Shown: piece by piece, positions 21,338-63,695 of the stretch
How the letters are laid out: each line of letters begins with the position of its first letter
Numbering within the stretch: the stretch's first letter is position 1
Assembly: GCA_052034495.1 (NCBI GenBank)
Contig: JBPOIL010000001.1
Location: 84,293 to 148,292 of the forward strand
Length of the DNA: 64,000 nt
Origin: Patescibacteria group bacterium
GTDB lineage: Bacteria > Patescibacteriota > Saccharimonadia > CAILAD01 > JADZBC01
Direction: 5' to 3'
Translations under genes and position numbers: made by a program
The notes under the pieces: generated by a model
What the model saw: only the letters and a program-made list of their open reading frames with translations
Database searches by the model: none
Told to the model about the DNA's origin: nothing

Positions 21338-23128
21338 ATGTTGGGTGCAATCCGTAAACTGTTCGAGCTCGTTGGCCTGATCGCCAAGGAGCCTGGAGGA
21401 GACAAGAAGGTACGACAGGTTAAAAAGGATGCCAAGAAGGCACTCTTTTGGCTGGTCGTTACAGAACTGCTGGAGATCGTTCAGATCTATCCGGTGAAGT
21501 ACTTCGTTGATGGAATCGCCCAGGGCAAGAGTCTCGGCTACCTGCTGAGCATTGTCGGTGTGATGCTGGCCATCGACGTGGTTGTGCGCATTGTTGCCAA
21601 CACGATGAACCATACTCGGCATGTTGCTGCGTGGCATCAGTACGTCATGCTGCTTGGCTTCGGTCAGGCAAAGCAAATGAGCATGGACGTGGCGTGGCAC
21701 CTTGAGCACGGCACAGGCGAAAAGGAATCCTTGATCGCCAAGAACCTCAATCGGATCGACAACTTGACGGATCGAGTCATTTACAACGGCTTGCCCGTGG
21801 TGATTCGGATCGTGTTGACGATTGTGGCTTTGTTCATCTTCGGTCCGGTTTTCGCACTGTTTGGTGTGATTGTGGTTGGGCTGTTCGTGGCTGTCATGGC
21901 CTACAACGGTCGCTACATCAAGCCAATCGACAAGGCCGGCCATCATGCCTGGAAGGACATGCATACTCGCGGGACTGAGCTGTCAGCAAAGTCACGTACT
22001 CTGAAGCAATTCGGGGTCGAAGCGAGCTTTGCGCGGCGCTATCAGTCTGTTCTAGACGGCTATGCCGAAGACGACATTGAACGCAACCGTGCTTGGCGCC
22101 GTTATCAGCGTCGTCCCGAATACGTCCTGATGGCTGCTTTCCTTGGCATGTATGCGTTGCTGGCGCTGTTGCACAACGGAACCGGTGGCGCTGTCACTGT
22201 TGGTACAGTGGTGCTGGTGATTGACTGGTTGAGGCGAATCTTCATCAACCTTTACCAGTTCCGAGATGTGCAGCGAGCCATTTCGGATGGCAGCGAGGCG
22301 CTCAATGAGTACATCGGGCTTTTCAAGACCGTTCCGAGCATTCGACAGCCCGCTACTCCCCAGAAGCCCACTGCGGCAGAGGGGAGGATTGAGCTGCGCT
22401 GCATGGGCTTTACGCATGCTGGTAATTGCGTGCCGACTCTTAAGGAGTTGGATTTGGTCATTGAGCCAAATACCACTATTGCGCTGGTTGGTCCCTCTGG
22501 GGCTGGCAAGTCAACGGTGGCCGCACTGCTGGCACGTGAGGCTGATCCGACCGAAGGGGAGATTCTCTTTGACGGCATTAGCTTGCGGCAGTTTGACTAC
22601 GACTACCTGCGCCAGCAGATGGTTACGGTCGTGTCGCAAGACGTGCAGCTGATCGATGGCAGCATCGCTGACAACATTCGCATGGGCAATGCCCTGGCAA
22701 GTGACGAAGCGGTGCACCAGGCTGCGCAGCGCGCTCATGCAGATGAGTTCATTGCCAGGCTGCCACACGGCTATGCCAGCCAGGTGGGCGAGAATGGCGT
22801 GCGGCTGTCAGGCGGACAGAGGCAGCGCGTGGCGATTGCCCGGGCTCTTCTGCGCAACCCCAAACTGTTGATCCTGGACGAGGCTACGAGCGCGCTCGAT
22901 GCACGCTCGCAAGACTTCGTGAAGGCGACGGTGGACGAGATGATTCAGTCTCGTCAGGCCACCATTGTGGTCATTGCTCACCGCTTGAGCACCGTGGAGT
23001 CGGCCGACGTGGTCTACTACATGGAAGACGGCCGTATTGTTGAGCATGGCGCTCACGCAGAGCTTTTGGCTCAAGGTGGCCGTTACGCCGAGATGGTGGC
23101 GCGTGAGATTGGAGAGCATTTGGACTGA
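21338..23128 (+). CDS. ABC transporter, fused permease/ATP-binding exporter
   Basis: Walker A GPSGAGKST, ABC signature LSGGQRQRVAIARAL, Walker B LLILDEATSALD, N-terminal TM domain. GC clearly above the window average. Confidence 0.85.
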   Translation: MLGAIRKLFELVGLIAKEPGGDKKVRQVKKDAKKALFWLVVTELLEIVQIYPVKYFVDGIAQGKSLGYLLSIVGVMLAIDVVVRIVANTMNHTRHVAAWHQYVMLLGFGQAKQMSMDVAWHLEHGTGEKESLIAKNLNRIDNLTDRVIYNGLPVVIRIVLTIVALFIFGPVFALFGVIVVGLFVAVMAYNGRYIKPIDKAGHHAWKDMHTRGTELSAKSRTLKQFGVEASFARRYQSVLDGYAEDDIERNRAWRRYQRRPEYVLMAAFLGMYALLALLHNGTGGAVTVGTVVLVIDWLRRIFINLYQFRDVQRAISDGSEALNEYIGLFKTVPSIRQPATPQKPTAAEGRIELRCMGFTHAGNCVPTLKELDLVIEPNTTIALVGPSGAGKSTVAALLAREADPTEGEILFDGISLRQFDYDYLRQQMVTVVSQDVQLIDGSIADNIRMGNALASDEAVHQAAQRAHADEFIARLPHGYASQVGENGVRLSGGQRQRVAIARALLRNPKLLILDEATSALDARSQDFVKATVDEMIQSRQATIVVIAHRLSTVESADVVYYMEDGRIVEHGAHAELLAQGGRYAEMVAREIGEHLD

Positions 23129-23317
23129 CATAGAAAGGAGGGTGACGGCGGGACGCGGGTGAATAACCTTGCGCCCCGCCTATCCCAAGTTGATAAGCCG
23201 AGAGGGGCTCTGACGTACTTTATAACGACATAGTAAAGAATTCAGAGTCCCTTCCGGCAGAGCAACAAGGCTCTCCGGCCCGCACGTTGGCGGGTTAGTT
23301 CGAAAGGGCGTACGTGT

Positions 23318-23863
23318 ATGTACGGACCAGTTATTGAAGGGGCAAAGTGCAAGCTTCGGCCTCATGTTGAGAAGGATGCCCATCTGTTCGTGCAGATGTT
23401 GGCCGACCCGGAGGTGAACAGGTACCTCTCGATGCAGTCGCCACCGAGCATCAGGTCTGAGCTGGAGTGGATCGAGGCACGCGCCAAGGATCCGCGGACC
23501 CTCGGCTGGACTATCGAGGTCGAGGGCAAGTGCGTCGGCTACGTTGGCGTAGACGCCATTAATTGGCGCAATGGCCACGGAACGGTTGGCATCTTCATCG
23601 GCCGCTCAGACCTGTGGGGCAAGGGCATCACGACCGAGGTTGCCCAGCTGGTGGCGCGCTATGTGTTCACCCAGACACCTCTGCGCAAGATCAAGGCCGG
23701 CTACCTGGCCCCCAATGTGGCGTCAGCCAAGGCCCAGGCTCGGATTGGCCTACGTGAGGTTGGCCGTTGGCACGCCGAGTATTTCCGCGATGGCCAGTGG
23801 GTCGACCATGTGTTGACCGAGCTGACCCGCGAGGAGTGGGTGGCAGCCCAGCTGAGTCGGTAG
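23318..23863 (+). CDS. GNAT family N-acetyltransferase (RimJ/RimL-like)
   Basis: GWTIEVEGKCVGYVGVDAINWRNGHGTVGIFIG...GKGITTEV. GC-rich. Confidence 0.65.
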   Translation: MYGPVIEGAKCKLRPHVEKDAHLFVQMLADPEVNRYLSMQSPPSIRSELEWIEARAKDPRTLGWTIEVEGKCVGYVGVDAINWRNGHGTVGIFIGRSDLWGKGITTEVAQLVARYVFTQTPLRKIKAGYLAPNVASAKAQARIGLREVGRWHAEYFRDGQWVDHVLTELTREEWVAAQLSR

Positions 23864-23952
23864 GCTCACCAACCCCCATCCACGCAAGCCCCTGGCGACT
23901 CGTTCGTCGGGGGCTTCTACCTTTAGCGCCGCTTCTCCGTTATACTTAGAAC

Positions 23953-24591
23953 ATGATTGTAATCGACGTAGAAGCAACGGGGATTGACCCTAAAAGAAAT
24001 TCACTTTTGAGTATTGGTGCGGTTAATTTTCACAACCCTAAAGAACAGTTTTATAAAGAATGTTATGCGTTCGAGGGCGCCGAGATCGATGAGTCGGCGA
24101 TTGCTTATTGTGGCTTTACCATGGAGCAAGCCACTGACAAGTCTAAACTAAGTGAAGGCGAGATGGTCCAAGCTTTCTTTGACTGGGCTAAGCAGTTTGA
24201 TCAGATTACCTTGGCTGGAGAAAACGTAGTGTGGTTGGATTTGGCCGCCTTAAGCTATGCTGCCGAGAGGCACGGACTTAAACATGACTTCGCGTTCAAG
24301 AGTCAGTTCGCGTATCAACAACCCATGCCCTTTGGCTTTCGAACCGTAGACCTGCACTCAATATCTTATGCGCACCACCTAAAGCGCGGCGTAAAGCCTC
24401 CGATGGAAAAGGGCCTAACTCGCTTAAGCGCCGACACTACATTACAGTATGTAGGCATCCCGCCAGAACCAAAGCCTCACCATGCTCTGAACGGAGCCAA
24501 ATACGAAGCCGAGGCTTTTTCCCGGTTCATTTATGGCAAGAACTTACTTCCAGAGTTCGCCGAATATCCAATCCCAGAGTATCTTCAATAA
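23953..24591 (+). CDS. DEDD-family 3'-5' exonuclease (DnaQ-like)
   Basis: MIVIDVEATGIDPKRNSLLSIGAV Exo I motif. Confidence 0.6.
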   Translation: MIVIDVEATGIDPKRNSLLSIGAVNFHNPKEQFYKECYAFEGAEIDESAIAYCGFTMEQATDKSKLSEGEMVQAFFDWAKQFDQITLAGENVVWLDLAALSYAAERHGLKHDFAFKSQFAYQQPMPFGFRTVDLHSISYAHHLKRGVKPPMEKGLTRLSADTTLQYVGIPPEPKPHHALNGAKYEAEAFSRFIYGKNLLPEFAEYPIPEYLQ

Positions 24592-29470: not shown

Positions 29471-29546
29471 GGGCCCGTAGCTCAGTGGTTAGAGCAGTCG
29501 GCTCATAACCGATTGGTCGCTGGTTCAAATCCAGCCGGGCCCACCA
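29471..29546 (+). tRNA. tRNA with CAT anticodon; sequence closely resembles E. coli tRNA-Ile2 (lysidine; ileX) rather than tRNA-Met
   Basis: GGGCCCGTAGCTCAGTGGTTAGAGCAGTCGGCTCATAACCGATTGGTCGCTGGTTCAAATCCAGCCGGGCCCACCA. Cloverleaf with anticodon loop CTCATAA. Encoded CCA. Confidence 0.85.
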
Positions 29547-29927: not shown

Positions 29928-30093
29928 TGCGCTACAGCGCAGATGATGGGGTGAGGCAACAGGGCCCACCCCAGAGCGACTTAGAATCATCTAGGTCGCT
30001 TTTTCGTTATTGACTCTTTATCGGGACAGGTATAGAATTTCACCAACACCTACCAACCGGTTCGTGTTAAGGCCAAATACAAGGGGGAAATCC

Positions 30094-30426
30094 GTGGCCA
30101 TCTTCCCGAGCATGACGCTCAAGTCGGTCAACCGTGTTCGTGTCGCACGTGGCGCCCCGCCGCTCAAGAAGCTGCGGAAGGGCGACCGTCGCAACCAGCA
30201 CATCTGTGCCATCGCCAACTCGCTCAGCGACGTGGCTCCCGGCATCAAGGTGCACAAGCGCCGCATCTCCGGGGTGGACCAGGAGTTCGCGGAGCTCATC
30301 GCCCGCGAGTTCGGCACCCACCTCGACCCGAGCAAGGAGACGCCCCAGGTGGTGATGCCGCTGCACATGCAGGGCTTCGTGTTCGCCTACGACCGAGGCG
30401 CCTACGACGAGCTCGCTCGCACCTGA
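30094..30426 (+). CDS. hypothetical protein, very GC-rich (~65% GC) cassette gene; start uncertain (GTG 30094 after AAGGGGG, ATG 30112, or TTG 30010)
   Basis: Strong GC3 bias picks this frame over the five overlapping ORFs. Translation ...MTLKSVNRVRVARGAPPLKKLRKGDRRNQHICAIANSLSDVAPGIKVHKRRISGVDQEFAELIAREFGTHLD... Confidence 0.45.
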   Translation: MAIFPSMTLKSVNRVRVARGAPPLKKLRKGDRRNQHICAIANSLSDVAPGIKVHKRRISGVDQEFAELIAREFGTHLDPSKETPQVVMPLHMQGFVFAYDRGAYDELART

Positions 30427-30430
30427 CCCA

Positions 30431-30524
30431 TCCATGTCCTGCGCGCATAGCAATACTGCGCAGCGTCTGCCAGACGATACCTGGCATCACCCAAGTTCAT
30501 GAATGTGATTCGTGAGTTTAGGTG
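30431..30524 (+). repeat. repeat C: structured ~95-bp element (stems ctgcgc/gcgcag, cgtctg/cagacg, tgccag/ctggca; ttcatgaa palindrome) directly after the cassette stop
   Basis: Homologous to repeat D at 31166-31288, with compensatory stem changes. Confidence 0.6.
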
Positions 30525-30572
30525 AGATTACCTCCGCTAGAGCTTGCAGATGGTTACAAGTGAGTCCAGTAA

Positions 30573-30625
30573 GGCCCACCAAGCATAAGAATTATAGATA
30601 AAGAATCCGCAAGGGGTCTTTTGTT
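30573..30625 (+). repeat. repeat B: second copy of the tRNA(CAT) 3' end plus downstream 44 bp (att-like remnant)
   Basis: ggcccaccaagcataagaattatagataaagaatccgcaaggggtcttttgtt compared with 29538-29590. Confidence 0.7.
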
Positions 30626-30648
30626 ATGCTTGATATCATTATCACGAA

Positions 30649-31155
30649 GTGTCATTATATGCCCACGAAGCAAACAATAGCTTCACGACCATAGGGGGTT
30701 CGTTGAAAACGCAGTCCTTGCAGTTCCACTTCGTTGGAAACCACTTGCTCGATGGCGGAGAGTACATCCTCTTCCTCATCCCAATCGTTGCCCTGCTGAC
30801 CGGAGTCGGTCTCCTCGTCGACGACAGAAAGAAGCATGCCGACAAGGTGCTCGTGTGCGCCCTCGTCTTCTTCTTCGGTCTCTTCATAGCGATGCACAAC
30901 AGCGGCGCTCACTACGACGTTCAGTACGTCAAGGGAGAGCTGGAGTCACAGGGGCTAAACGTTGTGAGGAGCAACGTCACAGGGGATGACAAGAACGACA
31001 ACACGGTCACCTTCGGCAACGGCGGGTGTGAGCTCGGTGACTTCAAGTTCTACTACGAGAAGGGCACCGTGCGTGCCTACGTCCGCCGAGGTGAGTACGA
31101 TGTGCTCATCACCCCGCAGCTCCTCGAGCGCATGTGCGCGTCTACCGGCGGCTGA
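30649..31155 (+). CDS. hypothetical membrane protein, very GC-rich cassette gene (2 TM segments plus soluble C-terminal domain); N-terminus/start uncertain
   Basis: GC3 about 85% in this frame from about 30740 on. TM segments ILFLIPIVALLTGVGLLV and VLVCALVFFFGLFIAM. The leader resembles that of the 30094 gene. Confidence 0.45.
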   Translation: MSLYAHEANNSFTTIGGSLKTQSLQFHFVGNHLLDGGEYILFLIPIVALLTGVGLLVDDRKKHADKVLVCALVFFFGLFIAMHNSGAHYDVQYVKGELESQGLNVVRSNVTGDDKNDNTVTFGNGGCELGDFKFYYEKGTVRAYVRRGEYDVLITPQLLERMCASTGG

Positions 31156-31165
31156 CCGCGTCGCC

Positions 31166-31288
31166 AACCATGTCCTGCACGCATCGCAATACTGTGCAGC
31201 GTTCGCCAGAACGATACTCTGGCGGGTGGGAGCTTCCGAGCTCCTGCCGTCACCCAAGTTCATGAATAGGATTCGTGAGTTTAGGTGA
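31166..31288 (+). repeat. repeat D: second copy of the structured element (stems ctgcac/gtgcag, cgttc/gaacg, gccag/ctggc; extra ggagct-tccg-agctcc hairpin)
   Basis: Shares ccatgtcctgc(g/a)cgcat(a/c)gcaatactg(c/t)gcagcg... and tcacccaagttcatgaat..gattcgtgagtttaggtga with repeat C. Confidence 0.6.
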
Positions 31289-31324
31289 AGCCGTCGTATC
31301 TTCTTGTGTGGTAGCATATAGTCT

Positions 31325-36159: not shown

Positions 36160-36236
<77 letters not shown>

Positions 36237-36301: not shown

Positions 36302-36378
36302 GGCTGAGTAGCTCAGTTGGTTAGAGCGCGGGACTCATAAGCCCGAGGTCGGTGGTTCAATCCCACCCTCAGCCACCA
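36302..36378 (+). tRNA. elongator tRNA-Met (CAT)
   Basis: GGCTGAGTAGCTCAGTTGGTTAGAGCGCGGGACTCATAAGCCCGAGGTCGGTGGTTCAATCCCACCCTCAGCCACCA, similar to E. coli metT. Confidence 0.85.
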
Positions 36379-41254: not shown

Positions 41255-43022
41255 GATTCGCAACTTTTGCATTATTGCTCATATTGACCACGGCAAGAGC
41301 ACCCTGGCCGATCGACTTATAGAGATAACAGGAACGGTTGAACGCAGAGACATGCAGGCCCAGCTACTTGATAGTATGGACCTGGAGCGCGAAAAGGGAA
41401 TTACGATTAAGCTCCAGCCAGTACGTATGAAGTGGAATGACTATACGCTAAACCTCATAGATACTCCTGGGCACGTAGATTTTAGCTACGAGGTTTCTCG
41501 TAGCTTGGCGGCTTGCGAGGGGGCAATCCTGGTCGTCGATGCTGCACAGGGCATCCAGGCGCAAACTCTTGCCAACGTGTACTTGGCAATCGAAGCCAAT
41601 CTAACGGTCATACCTGTTTTGAACAAAATCGACTTGCCTGCGGCGGAGCCTGAGCGTGTCGCTGCAGAGATTTCAAGCCTGATTGGCTGTGACCCGGACG
41701 AGATACTTCGCGTCTCTGCCAAAGACGGCACGAATGTTGATAAGGTGTTGGATATGATTGTGGAGCAAGTTCCTGCCCCACGTGGTAACGAGCAAGATCC
41801 GCTCAGGGCACTAATATTTGACTCAGTTTATGATGAATACCGTGGAGTAATCCTCTACATTAGGGTGGTTGATGGCGCACTGATTGGGGGCAAGACTTTG
41901 CGGCTCATGAGCAACAGTGAAGATACGCTAGCGATTGAATCTGGCTACTTTAGCCCACACAAGGTGGCTGCGGCTTCGTTGGAGTGTGGGCAAATTGGCT
42001 ATGTGGTAACCAATTTAAAATCAATTTCCGACGCTCGTGTAGGAGACACGGTTACCCTGGCTTCGGCGCCAGCCACTACCGCACTGGACGGCTATAAAAA
42101 GGTTAAGCCCTACGTGTACGCTGGTGTTTTCCCATCGTCTGGCGAGGACTATCCGGCGCTTCGTGATGCAATCGATAAGCTGAAATTGAACGATTCAGCG
42201 CTGGAATACACTCCAGAAACATCTATGGTACTTGGCTTTGGATTTCGGCTAGGCTTTTTGGGCTTGTTGCACTTAGAGATTGTAAAGGAGCGACTGGAGC
42301 GCGAGTATAACTTGAGCCTCGTTATTACAAACCCGTCGGTTGACTACGAAGTTACTACCACGCAGGGTGAGGAGGTTATGGTGAAGAACGCAGCTGACTT
42401 GCCGGATGTGAGTCGCATCGCCGAGATTCGCGAGCCTTGGATTAAAGGCGAAGTAGTTGTCCCGAGTGGCTACGTTGGCCAAGTTATCCAGTTAGTTAAT
42501 AGTATTCGCGGCATTCAGAGGCAGCTGGAATATATCGAGGAGACTCTATGTTTGCTGAATTTCGAAGCACCACTGGCCAACGTACTAACTGACTTTTATG
42601 ATTCGCTCAAGAGCATTACATCGGGTTACGGATCCTTCAACTACGAGGTGTCAGACTATCGTGCCGAAAAGCTCGTAAAGGTAGACGTATTGGTTGGCGG
42701 CGAATTGGTCGATAGTCTGAGCTTGATAGTGCACCGTACCGAGGCCGAGCGATTGGGCAGGACAATGGTAGAAAAACTCAAGGAGGTTATTCCGAAGCAG
42801 TTATTCGTGATTAGCCTGCAGGCCGCAATAGGGGGCAAGGTGATCGCTCGCGAAGATGTGAAGGCAATGGGGAAGAACGTAACCGCCAAACTGTATGGAG
42901 GTGATGTAACACGTAAGAATAAGTTGCTCGATAAGCAAAAGAAGGGTAAAAAGAGGATGAAGAAGATCGGTAAGGTTGACATTCCGCCCGAGGCATTTAT
43001 GGTACTAGTAAAGCGCGATTAA
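41247..43022 (+). CDS. lepA: elongation factor 4 (LepA)
   Basis: IRNFCIIAHIDHGKSTLADRL G1 motif. C-terminal LepA domain. 591 aa. Confidence 0.95.
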   Translation: MDKIRNFCIIAHIDHGKSTLADRLIEITGTVERRDMQAQLLDSMDLEREKGITIKLQPVRMKWNDYTLNLIDTPGHVDFSYEVSRSLAACEGAILVVDAAQGIQAQTLANVYLAIEANLTVIPVLNKIDLPAAEPERVAAEISSLIGCDPDEILRVSAKDGTNVDKVLDMIVEQVPAPRGNEQDPLRALIFDSVYDEYRGVILYIRVVDGALIGGKTLRLMSNSEDTLAIESGYFSPHKVAAASLECGQIGYVVTNLKSISDARVGDTVTLASAPATTALDGYKKVKPYVYAGVFPSSGEDYPALRDAIDKLKLNDSALEYTPETSMVLGFGFRLGFLGLLHLEIVKERLEREYNLSLVITNPSVDYEVTTTQGEEVMVKNAADLPDVSRIAEIREPWIKGEVVVPSGYVGQVIQLVNSIRGIQRQLEYIEETLCLLNFEAPLANVLTDFYDSLKSITSGYGSFNYEVSDYRAEKLVKVDVLVGGELVDSLSLIVHRTEAERLGRTMVEKLKEVIPKQLFVISLQAAIGGKVIAREDVKAMGKNVTAKLYGGDVTRKNKLLDKQKKGKKRMKKIGKVDIPPEAFMVLVKRD

Positions 43023-43092
43023 GCTTGCGATTTGTAGGCTACTAGGCAATAATGAGTTAGCCTATTTGGTCCCCAACGAGAAAGTAGCAATG

Positions 43093-43257
43093 TGTCTGAC
43101 GACATCAAGGATGATAAACCGACTCCGGACAAAGTGAACAGCTCCTGGTTTAAGGAGCTGGTAGAGCGAGAGGCTCGTGGCGAGAGGCCTCAGACTCACG
43201 TACCAAACTGGAAGGCGACCAAGCCACGCGGCTGTGGCTGCATGGGTGACGCGTAAT
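43093..43257 (+). CDS. small hypothetical protein (55 aa, GTG start) ending GCGCMGDA, in a GC-rich insert
   Basis: Charged peptide MSDDIKDDKPTPDKVNSSWFKELVEREARGERPQTHVPNWKATKPRGCGCMGDA. Stop overlaps the next ATG. Confidence 0.25.
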
Positions 43258-43441
43258 GCCTGACAAGAAACTCTGTGGCTGTCCTGAGTGCAGTTGCAGC
43301 ACCATCGACGAGTGCCTCGATCCACGAACTCGTTGCGAGCATCACGGCGAATGCTGTCGCCCTGATTCGGTGCGAACCGCGGACCACTACACGGCACTCG
43401 GGAGAGTCGATCCGTTCACTCTCCAGCCAGTTCGGGGGTGA
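43256..43441 (+). CDS. Cys-rich small protein (61 aa; 8 Cys + 2 His in 30 residues)
   Basis: MPDKKLCGCPECSCSTIDECLDPRTRCEHHGECCRPD... Strong hairpin terminator follows. Confidence 0.35.
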   Translation: MPDKKLCGCPECSCSTIDECLDPRTRCEHHGECCRPDSVRTADHYTALGRVDPFTLQPVRG

Positions 43442-43464
43442 GGCGTCTAAAGCGTCTCACCCCC

Positions 43465-43495
43465 GCCCGATCCCCAGAATCATTCTGGGGCTTTT
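43465..43495 (+). terminator. rho-independent terminator (ccccagaat-c-attctgggg-CTTTTTG)
   Basis: Perfect 9-bp palindrome plus T-run. Confidence 0.65.
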
Positions 43496-43552
43496 TGATT
43501 CTTGAAAACGCACGGCTTAAAGCTTATGCTTATAGCATAATCAGGAAACACT

Positions 43553-44182
43553 ATGGCAGCATCAGAGTCCAAAGAACCAAACACAAAGTCCCCAGAGGAG
43601 CAGCCGAAAAAGAAGAGCACAGGCAAAGTAATCCTTATTTGCTTGCTGGCCCTTTTGCTGGCCGTACTTCCCGCATACGGCGTATGGTATTGGCAGCAGA
43701 ATGAAGCAAAACAGCAGCAAGAACAACTTCAGGAAGAAATAGACGAACTGCAAAAGGCAAAAGAAAAGCTAGAGAAGGCAGCAAAAGAATTGAGCACAAA
43801 GGCGGCCGATACTTGCCCGGCTGGCCTCACAGGAGCCCAAACAGAGAATGTGCAAGCATCAATTGAGAGCATGAACACGGCAGCCCTTGATCAGCTTATG
43901 ACGGACACGGTAGAAGTTACTTTTGCCGCGAGCGAGAAGGGCGGCAATGTGACTAAAGATCAGGCGATTGCTGACTTAGGTTACTTAAACAGCGCCACGA
44001 TGCCTTGGAACTGGAATATTGATCAGGCAACTCTAAACTCATATAAGAACGGTGACTATAATATTTATCTGGCTGATGATGATATATTCGGTGTTGCCGC
44101 CAATAAGTACTTTGTGAGTTTTCGGGTAAAATGCGGCAAGATTGACCAGGTGTTTGTGTCGGCATCGAGTGACTTGCTATAG
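43553..44182 (+). CDS. hypothetical membrane-anchored protein with coiled coil
   Basis: TM helix ILICLLALLLAVL. QQQEQLQEEIDELQKAKEKLEKAAKEL. 209 aa. Confidence 0.55.
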   Translation: MAASESKEPNTKSPEEQPKKKSTGKVILICLLALLLAVLPAYGVWYWQQNEAKQQQEQLQEEIDELQKAKEKLEKAAKELSTKAADTCPAGLTGAQTENVQASIESMNTAALDQLMTDTVEVTFAASEKGGNVTKDQAIADLGYLNSATMPWNWNIDQATLNSYKNGDYNIYLADDDIFGVAANKYFVSFRVKCGKIDQVFVSASSDLL

Positions 44183-44211
44183 TCTAGTAATAATAGAAAG
44201 GTTATAAGAAC

Positions 44212-44514
44212 ATGACAGAACAAAAACAAGCAGAGAAGTACGTAGCGGTTAAAAAGGTAGACCCAGTTTCGATCGGAAAATACTTGGCAGGTATATACTT
44301 GCTCATCTTTATGATTATTGGGGCCTTCATGATTGTAGGCGGGCTATTTGCCCTAATAATGGGCGAGTGGGAGCTAGTGCTCATAGGCCTGGGTGTCGCC
44401 ACTCTGGGCGCGGCGTTTTATGCCATGATTGGCTTTGTAGCTGGAGTGATCGGCGGCTTTATTTATAACGTCGTAGCTTCTAAAATGGGTGGAATCCGTA
44501 TTGTTTTAGAGTAG
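44212..44514 (+). CDS. small hypothetical membrane protein
   Basis: 100 aa with two TM helices. RBS GAAAGG. Confidence 0.5.
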   Translation: MTEQKQAEKYVAVKKVDPVSIGKYLAGIYLLIFMIIGAFMIVGGLFALIMGEWELVLIGLGVATLGAAFYAMIGFVAGVIGGFIYNVVASKMGGIRIVLE

Positions 44515-44539
44515 TAAGCTGAAAAGTCTTAAAGACCAC

Positions 44540-44566
44540 CTAGCACTCTTGACACGAGAGTGCTAG
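44540..44566 (+). promoter_or_regulatory. CIRCE operator (cTAGCACTC-N9-GAGTGCTAg) with embedded promoter (-35 TTGACA, -10 TACAAT)
   Basis: Near-consensus TTAGCACTC-N9-GAGTGCTAA inverted repeat 55 bp upstream of hrcA. Confidence 0.85.
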
Positions 44567-44584
44567 TTTTTTACAATTAAGTCA

Positions 44585-44611
44585 TTAGCACAAAGGTTAA
44601 TACAGTGCTAA
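44585..44611 (+). promoter_or_regulatory. second CIRCE-like inverted repeat (TTAGCAC-N13-GTGCTAA)
   Basis: Outer heptamers are perfect; inner TC/GA positions diverge. Ends 10 nt before the hrcA ATG. Confidence 0.55.
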
Positions 44612-44620
44612 GGACCGATT

Positions 44621-62162: not shown

Positions 62163-63695
62163 TTGAGGCATCTACATATGGAACTATTATTTGTTATTGC
62201 CGCTCTAACAGTTGGTGCTGGAGCTGGCTATCAGGCGAAAGCAATTGTTGCCAAACAGAAGGGCGACAAAGCAGAGCAAAAGGCCAACCAGCTTATCGAG
62301 GATGCCAAGTCTAAAGCTAAGGAGGTTGCCTTAGCGGCAAAAGAGGAGGCACTAAAGGTCGCGCAGCAGGCAAAGGCAGAGGATGACGCACGGCGTAAGC
62401 GACTCGAAGAGCAGGAGCAGCGCGTTAGTAAACGAGAGACTATTTTGGATGGCAAAATGGAGGTGTTAGATCGTAAGACTGATACACTGGCCCAAAGCGA
62501 ATCCGAGATATCGGAGATCAAAGAGGAGCTAAAGGCTATAAGAGTCAAGCAAGAGCTCAACTTGGAAAAGATTGCGAAGCTAAGTCGCGACGAGGCACGA
62601 GAAAAGCTACTCCAGATGACTGAAAAAGACATGAAGGCTGACATGGTTAGCTACATTGCCAAGAGGCAGGACGAAGCAAAAGAGAAGGCCGATGAGTACG
62701 CAAAAGAAATCTTAGCAGACGCTATGGCGCGTATGGCCACAGAGGCATCGGGGGAGCGGACTATAACTACCGTTAAACTTCCAGATGACGACATGAAGGG
62801 TCGTATAATCGGTAAGGAAGGTCGCAATATCCAGACGATTGAGCGATTAACTGGCGTTGATGTGCTCGTAGATGAGACCCCTGGGGTGGTGGTTCTGTCG
62901 AGCTTCGACCCGATTCGCCGACAGGTTGCACGAGTAGCGATAGAGCAGCTGGTGTCAGACGGCAGAATACATCCGGCACGCATCGAAGAGGTGGTACATA
63001 AAGCTGAGAAAGAAATTGATAACGAGATCAAGAAGGCTGGCGAAGACGCCGCCCGGGAGGCAAAAGTCCTCGGCTTGCCACCTGAGATCAATAAAACAAT
63101 GGGCATGCTGAAGTATCGCACCAGTTATTCCCAGAACGTTTTGCACCATAGCATAGAGATGGCCCATTTGGCCGCGATGATCGCTAGTGAGATTGGAGCT
63201 GATGCCCAGGTTGCCCGCGCAGCGGCCTACCTGCACGACCTTGGGAAGGCCGTTACGCACGAGGTCGACGGCAACCACCATCACATTACTGGCGAGATGT
63301 GTCGTAAGTACGGTATTGATGAAGCGATCTGCCATGCCGCAGAGGCACACCACGATGACATCGAGGCAACTACTCCTGAGGCAATGATCGTTCGCGCTGT
63401 TGACGGCTTGAGTGGTGGCAGACCCGGCGCTCGCGGCGATACCTTGGAGCGTTTTGCAGATCGCATGAAGGATTTGGAGAACCTGGCCAAGACGTTTCCT
63501 GGTATTCAGAAGTCGTTTGCCATGAGCGCAGGCCGTGAGATTAGAATCTTTGTAACCCCCAATGAGATTGATGACCTAAGTGCCATTAAGCTGGCTCGGG
63601 ACATTGCCAACAAGATCGAGGCGACACTCAAGTATCCTGGTACAATAAAGGTTAATGTAATTCGCGAAACAAGAGCAGAGGAGTACGCTAAATGA
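62163..63695 (+). CDS. rny: ribonuclease Y
   Basis: N-terminal TM segment and coiled coil. KH domain GRIIGKEGRNIQTIE. HD domain HSIEMAHLAAMIA...HDLGK. Confidence 0.9.
   Translation: MRHLHMELLFVIAALTVGAGAGYQAKAIVAKQKGDKAEQKANQLIEDAKSKAKEVALAAKEEALKVAQQAKAEDDARRKRLEEQEQRVSKRETILDGKMEVLDRKTDTLAQSESEISEIKEELKAIRVKQELNLEKIAKLSRDEAREKLLQMTEKDMKADMVSYIAKRQDEAKEKADEYAKEILADAMARMATEASGERTITTVKLPDDDMKGRIIGKEGRNIQTIERLTGVDVLVDETPGVVVLSSFDPIRRQVARVAIEQLVSDGRIHPARIEEVVHKAEKEIDNEIKKAGEDAAREAKVLGLPPEINKTMGMLKYRTSYSQNVLHHSIEMAHLAAMIASEIGADAQVARAAAYLHDLGKAVTHEVDGNHHHITGEMCRKYGIDEAICHAAEAHHDDIEATTPEAMIVRAVDGLSGGRPGARGDTLERFADRMKDLENLAKTFPGIQKSFAMSAGREIRIFVTPNEIDDLSAIKLARDIANKIEATLKYPGTIKVNVIRETRAEEYAK

Follow-up and report, generated by a model that had tools for sequence, protein, structure and literature searches.

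The DNA analysed here, a 64,000-nt stretch of a genome from the Saccharibacteria (TM7, candidate phyla radiation) that we call the window, carries between lepA and hrcA a short GC-rich segment with two small open reading frames (ORFs), the second of which, ORF2, encodes a Cys-rich protein and is the main subject of this work. Coordinates are positions within the window, features lie on the plus strand unless stated otherwise, and L- and P-numbers denote loci and proteins of relatives. The local gene order is murJ, lepA, the small-ORF segment, p209 (a 209-aa membrane/coiled-coil protein), p100 (a 100-aa membrane protein), hrcA, grpE and dnaK; p209 and p100 are lineage-restricted membrane proteins with no significant family match. 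ORF1 (43092-43256) starts with GTG and encodes a 54-aa hydrophilic peptide with a C-terminal G-C-G-C, and ORF2 (43256-43441) starts with ATG and encodes 61 aa, among them 8 Cys and 3 His. The two ORFs overlap at TAATG (43254-43258), where the stop codon TAA and the start codon ATG have one base in common. The initial annotation of this DNA had already described the overlap, the place of ORF1 with its ending GCGCMGDA, and the length and eight Cys of ORF2; ORF1 is one residue shorter than the 55 it gave, and its two His hold for the part of ORF2 it quoted but not for the whole protein.

GC content is 56.5% at 43050-43500, in line with the ~57% originally estimated, and 59% at 43092-43490, against a mean of 49.3% for the window. 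The segment’s 300-nt GC value of 0.603 ranks 24th among 1274 windows of that size, two larger GC islands elsewhere being richer. ORF1 and ORF2 have GC contents at third codon positions of 0.61-0.65, above the 0.50-0.55 of host genes, and each member of the ORF2 family described below has a higher GC content than its own contig. The independent Logan run SRR34217545 (L088) is 100% identical to the window over 6165 bp, which rules out an artefact of assembly.

That this is an insert is evident from the comparison with relatives. Neither ORF1 nor ORF2 occurs in any of the 80 best LepA-anchored loci, almost all of them from Saccharibacteria metagenome-assembled genomes, and these include two loci with 87%-identical LepA. 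One of the 80, L002, preserves an empty site, where the lepA stop codon is followed by 6 nt and then by the conserved p209 promoter, TTGAAT-N17-TATGCT. Because this promoter comes after lepA in L002 and after a terminator in the window, the insert spans ~43023-43500. Its left end holds a predicted promoter-like site, TTGCGA-N17-AATAAT (43025-43053, consensus scan), directly 3' of the lepA stop, and the arrangement GCTTGC...N17-18...(A/G)ATAATGA also stands 5' of ORF1 in L081 and L084. The right border is marked by the predicted promoter-like site of p209, TTGAAA-N17-TATGCT (43502-43530), which lies outside the insert and is kept in L081, L082 and L084.

Two hairpins follow the Cys-rich ORF. 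Hairpin 1 (43433-43465, RNAfold) has a 14-bp stem and a 5-nt loop, encloses the ORF2 stop TGA (43439-43441) and has no T-run; its core is a perfect 9-bp pairing of GGGGGTGAG (43434-43442), the arm with the stop codon, and CTCACCCCC (43456-43464). Hairpin 2 with its T-run (43472-43500, terminator scan) closes the cassette: the CCCCAGAAT/ATTCTGGGG stem-loop at 43472-43490 is followed by CTTTTT and qualifies as an intrinsic (Rho-independent) terminator. The perfect 9-bp hairpin first reported as the terminator is thus present as the core of hairpin 1, but termination belongs to the second hairpin. L082 has a hairpin at the hairpin 1 position whose upper stem shows compensatory changes, and in L084 a hairpin directly follows the stop codon; both loci also have terminators at the place of hairpin 2, with entirely different stem sequences. 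Hairpin 1 would serve as an mRNA 3' stabiliser or as part of a compound terminator. We considered an integron attC-like identity for it, but it lacks the GTTRRRY core and there is no integrase in the sequence inspected. Readthrough of its UGA in the manner of a selenocysteine insertion sequence was also discarded, as the readthrough products are unconserved and the L084 gene ends TAG TAG. In P0001, the closest relative of ORF2 (85% identical), the stop is lost and a 15-residue extension, WGGPGAGPPPPPPQK, apparently runs through the GC-rich hairpin after the gene. On these predicted signals, the segment is a self-contained unit of promoter-like site, two ORFs, hairpin 1 and terminator.

ORF2 is a real protein-coding gene. 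In codon-aware comparisons of the window, L081 and L082, its ratio of nonsynonymous to synonymous divergence (dN/dS) is 0.11-0.19, and 26-30 of the 46-53 differences fall at codon position 3. The initial annotation had pointed to other open frames in this DNA, and a 76-aa ORF on the plus strand (43275-43505) and a 111-aa ORF on the minus strand (43062-43397) do exist; both are broken by stop codons in L081, and the phase of the substitutions suits neither. The minus-strand ORF had been named as a possible refutation of the pair if it proved the better conserved; its wobble positions fall on codon position 2 of ORF2, which varies least. It is the low dN/dS, the third-position excess and the breakage of competing frames in L081 that establish ORF2 as a gene, and both its frame and its Cys spacing, which it had been proposed to check in relatives, are kept. 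The Cys density of ORF2 would not settle the matter by itself: among 2157 stop-to-stop ORFs with lengths of 50-90 aa from Saccharibacteria, 3, ORF2 included, have 8 or more Cys within 28 residues. The sole other such ORF in the window lies at ~21511-21700 on the plus strand (…HCRCDAGHRRGCAHCCQHDEPYSACCC…) and is of putative coding status. A programmed -1 frameshift fusing ORF1 to ORF2 was rejected as well; the ORF2 frame is -1 relative to ORF1 in three loci, but there is no slippery site, and in-frame stops separate the ORFs in L081 and L084.

It is accordingly extremely unlikely that the segment is non-coding in these frames and acts as a structured RNA, as a Cys-codon leader or attenuator, or through the minus-strand ORF. 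GC-rich DNA with several open frames and two hairpins after a Cys-rich ORF invites such a view, and ORF2 plus its 3' region does fold better than shuffled sequence (z = -4.3). However, this folding signal comes from the two terminal hairpins, the ORF1 region gives only z = -1.2, and the codon-position pattern fits the ORF2 frame and no other. Against an attenuator, p209 downstream is served by a conserved promoter of its own, which the empty site has too, and inspection of the sequence finds no convincing antiterminator pairing of the hairpin arms. The ~400-nt GC-rich island had also suggested RNase P, transfer-messenger RNA (tmRNA) or a riboswitch; Rfam 15 matches nothing in 42000-44500 even at E up to 1 and only tRNAs at the gathering score over the whole window, and ARAGORN finds no tmRNA.

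Six relatives of ORF2 were found, giving a family of seven sequences. A word-indexed search across 5.8 billion cluster representatives gave three close predicted proteins (72-85% identical), and exhaustive profile searching with HMMER across 1.84 billion representatives gave three distant ones (38-41%), to which a second profile search added none; DNA for comparison was recovered for L081, L082 and L084-L087. The exact ORF2 sequence was not found among ~15 billion public proteins, and a metagenome DNA scan returned as its sole match L083, a 16-residue chance match (RCEHHGEC). There is no family match for ORF2 in Pfam, NCBIfam, PHROGs or PADLOC, no match of the family profile in a sequence search of the PDB, and none in a fold search. 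We set aside an origin in a phage, plasmid or defence system, as no homolog appears in PHROGs, PADLOC, phage or plasmid records or viral contigs. The family is evidently undescribed and very rare, and its source is Saccharibacteria wherever identifiable.

All seven sequences share the signature C-x-C-x2-C-x-C-x5-C-[LF]-D-x(4-5)-C-x-H-x3-C-[CH], which in the window ORF2 reads C-x-C-x2-C-x-C-x5-C-L-D-x4-C-x-H-x3-C-C. The invariant ligand candidates are C7, C9, C12, C14, C20, C27, H29 and C33, and position 34 is Cys or His. Residues between the first four Cys vary freely, and the second His, H30, is unconserved. ORF2 is 13% Cys overall and 22% over core residues 1-37, and this core is devoid of Phe, Trp and Tyr, although the distant member P0006 has a Trp there. 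With its low mass, high Cys content and few or no core aromatics, ORF2 has the composition of a metallothionein in the operational sense. No family member has a signal peptide or hydrophobic segment. This and the charged N-termini point to a reduced protein of the cytoplasm.

Conservation extends beyond the ligands. The close relatives also keep E19, L21-D22-P23-R24, E28 and G31, and a tail of the form ADHYxAL..VDPFTL(Q/E)PV is common to the four close sequences linked to lepA. ORF2 could then be a regulatory or structural zinc-cluster micro-protein, or a redox switch, whose tail binds protein or nucleic acid with no role in buffering, ORF1 being an allele-specific modulator. We hold this to be unlikely, if worth keeping in mind. 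The strong conservation of ECLDPR, CEHHGECCR and ADHY..VDPFTLQPV among close relatives speaks for it, as does a housekeeping and heat-shock neighbourhood (lepA, hrcA-grpE-dnaK) with no metal-homeostasis genes nearby. However, the tail is unconserved in the three distant members, and the genomic context is not conserved either, the neighbourhood being the syntenic backbone that received the insert. There is also no similarity to zinc-finger, anti-sigma or Hsp33-type families.

ORF1 evolves fast. An ORF of ~50-75 aa in the same orientation, with C-x-C near its end, stands upstream of ORF2 in 4/4 syntenic loci, the endings being GCGCMGDA (window), GCGCRGQ, PCGCTGGVW and PCMCSATRGGGFV; C-x-C occurs in 1.8% of random ORF tails. 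Outside the last ~8 residues, ORF1 is hypervariable. The window ORF1 and its L082 partner share 43% identity, with dN/dS 0.37 at saturated dS, and there is no significant protein or DNA similarity between the ORF1s of the window and L081, the nucleotide score equalling the best of 200 shuffles. AlphaFold2 (AF2) gives ORF1 a predicted local distance difference test score (pLDDT) of 61, with one helix (residues 18-28) and a remainder of low-confidence coil. ORF1 is called as a protein in source records (P0004), and gene calls on the identical Logan contig contain ORF1 and miss ORF2. The coupling that the initial annotation ascribed to the pair is borne out by the TAATG in the window, but translational coupling is found in just 2/4 of the syntenic loci. 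The two ORFs are separated by a 17-nt spacer in L081; in L084, the most divergent syntenic locus, there is no overlap, and a 144-nt spacer (372-515) contains several short GC-rich inverted repeats.

The lepA-hrcA interval (43023-44620 in the window, compared with L001-L048) is variable across Saccharibacteria. It holds nothing in L004, p100 in L001, p209 and p100 in L002, and the small-ORF pair with p209 and p100 in the window. L082 has at 1351-1851, between lepA and the pair, an extra 166-aa ORF with HELGH (HExxH metalloprotease-like) and no Pfam, PHROG or PADLOC match.

Within this interval, the window and L081 differ along a sharply bounded recombination tract of ~600 bp (42880-43405, without strand; identity profile), in which they are as divergent as distant lineages. 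The background identity of the two is 96.5% over 5.8 kb upstream, 0.96 in the body of lepA and 97% in p209. In the tract it drops to 82% over the last 96 nt of lepA, ORF1 is unalignable, and ORF2 codons 1-48 are 71% identical; at the right edge identity rises to 0.90 over the last 14 ORF2 codons and to 100% from ~43405 downstream. The distance between the window and L081 inside the tract is about that of either to L082. ORF2 of the window and L081 differ with dS 1.17 and dN/dS 0.14, and such saturated dS with low dN/dS is the mark of homologous recombination that brought in an old, divergent allele, not of rapid positive selection. As read from these alignments, whole alleles of the cassette are exchanged between lineages by homologous recombination.

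A divergence hot spot amid near-identical strains, together with a hypervariable ORF1, is a pattern that polymorphic toxin/immunity and pheromone loci also show. The pair might therefore be an exported disulfide-rich peptide (bacteriocin, toxin or signal) with an immunity or precursor partner, the swaps reflecting diversifying strain-specific interactions. We consider this quite improbable. Apart from the absence of signal peptides, no member has a double-glycine leader or membrane segment, and a transporter, protease or kinase is linked in no context. The substitution pattern in the swapped tract is that of allele import, not of positive selection. One member gives a weak match to Cys_Knot_tox (PF17486; E = 0.02, 15.5 bits against a cut-off of 27), but it falls below threshold and is seen in just 1/7 members. 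P0003 is telling in another way: it has His in place of the last Cys and thus 7 Cys in all, and this odd number, like the replacement itself, fits a metal ligand and not an all-disulfide fold.

The initial annotation had also raised a leader/core arrangement of the ribosomally synthesised and post-translationally modified peptide (RiPP) type. In its present form, this would make ORF1, ORF2 or both RiPP precursors modified by an enzyme encoded elsewhere; both peptides are small and Cys-rich, and some thiol-modified RiPPs have core regions that look like the C-x-C at the C-terminus of ORF1. It is nonetheless very improbable. By Pfam-labelled gene calls, no maturase-type gene, protease or exporter is adjacent in the window, L081, L082, L084, L085 or L086, the family’s three genomic contexts have no maturase in common, and the window has no ORF of at least 150 aa with the radical-SAM CxxxCxxC motif; a search for modifying enzymes near the pair thus came up as empty as the annotation had said for the window. 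Purifying selection acts along the full ORF2, tail included, where a leader-plus-variable-core precursor would differ, and variation in ORF1 spares just the last ~8 residues, which is not the typical leader pattern. Moreover, Saccharibacteria have small genomes, and promoter and terminator are both part of this self-contained unit.

We favor, with moderate confidence, a different reading: ORF2 would be a cytoplasmic polynuclear metal-thiolate cluster protein, with a C-x-C partner in ORF1, carried in an exchanged accessory unit. What leads us to it is the presence of nine soft ligands in 28 residues, the C-x-C, C-x2-C and adjacent-Cys motifs, the interchange of Cys and His and the lack of core aromatics. 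In the literature, the string CxCxxCxC appears almost only in metallothionein papers. The 8 Cys and 1 His of ORF2 most likely chelate two or three Zn(II) or several Cu(I). The protein would then buffer metal in the manner of metallothioneins, or be a rigid zinc-cluster micro-protein that contacts a partner through its conserved C-terminal tail. Of the functions first offered for the pair, metallothionein-like metal binding is the one that fits best, although ORF2 matched no known metallothionein family. Metal binding, the identity of the metal, the interaction of ORF1 with ORF2 and the physiological role are all matters that we infer from sequence.

For ORF1, the invariant C-x-C, the coupling in two loci and the joint replacement with the N-terminal half of ORF2 in L081 suggest a physical or functional partnership with ORF2, which may supply extra thiolates or a route for metal hand-over. 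As a fast-evolving, mostly disordered peptide of ~50 aa, ORF1 plausibly donates the two thiolates of its C-x-C to the ORF2 cluster or exchanges metal with it, and the TAATG overlap would couple its translation to that of ORF2 in the window genome. A bolder version, which we regard as a rather doubtful prospect, is a two-polypeptide metal centre unique to Saccharibacteria, in which ORF2, as a new 8-Cys/1-His micro-protein fold, would build the cluster jointly with the C-x-C tail of the diversifying ORF1 peptide, and matched ORF1/ORF2 alleles would be swapped as a unit between lineages. Such a centre could be a new kind of bipartite metallothionein or metallochaperone, or a pair for allele-specific recognition with one metal cluster in common, an extension we advance with the same reserve.

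Several points weigh against the metal-thiolate reading. ORF2 resembles no metallothionein or zinc-finger family in sequence or fold, and its conserved non-Cys residues, atypical of plastic metallothioneins, argue for a defined fold and a dedicated partner, closer to a structural zinc-cluster micro-protein than to a plastic sponge for metal. In none of the three genomic contexts does a metal-sensing regulator, a transporter or any other metal gene stand next to the ORF2-type gene. The AF2 model of ORF2 is moderately confident (pLDDT 64.5 overall, ~75-80 over the core), and metals are outside the model’s scope. The sequences are consistent with ORF1 being coding, but the evidence is weaker than for ORF2; the family can also do without ORF1, as the ORF2-type genes of L085 and L086 have no ORF1-like partner. 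Finally, with just seven sequences, the conservation statistics are thin.

If ORF2 binds metal, the family would be a third independent bacterial metallothionein-like lineage. It would also be the first from the candidate phyla radiation, a group of ultra-small episymbiotic cells in which metal homeostasis is almost uncharacterised. Selected micro-proteins such as ORF2 escape annotation, and surveys of protein databases therefore undercount families of this kind. The sharp allele swap in near-identical strains marks the lepA-hrcA interval as an accessory-gene hot spot in Saccharibacteria. The practical value of the finding is modest for now.

Elsewhere in the window, other GC-rich islands lie at 22501-24000, 30051-31300 and 63151-63450, with 300-nt GC up to 0.65, 0.67 and 0.59, respectively. 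The island at 30 kb starts ~500 nt after a tRNA-Met gene (29471-29546), has ambiguous ORFs open in several frames, and may be horizontally acquired DNA. This is one of three tRNA-Met (CAT) genes in 7 kb, the other two (36160-36236 and 36302-36378) being in tandem, 66 nt apart; the three presumably include initiator, elongator and/or tRNA-Ile2 precursor types.

Among known systems, zinc-finger micro-proteins and zinc ribbons resemble ORF2 in being of similar size, cytoplasmic and often missed by gene callers. However, ORF2 has C-x-C-x2-C-x-C...C-C in place of paired CxxC knuckles and matches no zinc-ribbon family, and the zinc-ribbon pair entertained in the initial annotation fails on this Cys spacing.

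Bacterial metallothioneins of the SmtA/BmtA type (PF02069) characteristically place about 9 Cys and 1-2 His in a Zn3-4 cluster around a zinc-finger-like fold. In this family, a Pseudomonas protein binds metal as Zn3Cys9His and SmtA forms a four-metal cluster (PMC7387436). Like ORF2, these are small (~55-80 aa) cytoplasmic proteins with a Cys and His ligand set of similar size and a Cys-rich core free of aromatics. The SmtA stretch KCACEPCLC has the same C-x-C-x2-C-x-C spacing as the N-terminal part of ORF2. At E up to 1, hmmscan finds no match to PF02069 (Metallothio_Pro) in 7/7 family members, and BLASTP of ORF2 against an SmtA sequence gives E = 0.8 or worse. ORF2 differs in having conserved non-Cys residues and, in close relatives, a ~25-aa tail without Cys, and SmtA is not known to have a counterpart of the upstream C-x-C partner peptide seen at four ORF2 loci. 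The SmtB/ArsR-type repressor that adjoins the metallothionein gene in cyanobacterial loci is absent beside ORF2, its neighbours being lepA, p209, p100 and hrcA, with unrelated genes in their place in L085 and L086; Pseudomonas metallothioneins likewise have no SmtB-type regulator, so an adjacent repressor is not universal (PMC7387436).

MymT, the Cu(I) metallothionein of Mycobacterium tuberculosis, is similarly small (~50 aa), cytoplasmic, lineage-restricted and long overlooked by annotation. It carries C-x-C, C-x-H and C-x2-C motifs. Its Cys register differs from that of ORF2, however, and homology went undetected in the exhaustive profile search. MymT is one of only two bacterial metallothioneins with tested function (PMC7387436).

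The Zn3Cys9 (pre-SET/CXC) and Zn2Cys6 (Gal4) clusters share with ORF2 the combination of densely packed ligands, nine in ~28 residues in ORF2, and conserved non-ligand residues. These are eukaryotic domains within large proteins, whereas ORF2 is a free-standing bacterial micro-protein with no sequence or fold match to them. By analogy, the nine ligands of ORF2, with their C-x-C and adjacent Cys, would fit a trinuclear bridging-thiolate cluster.

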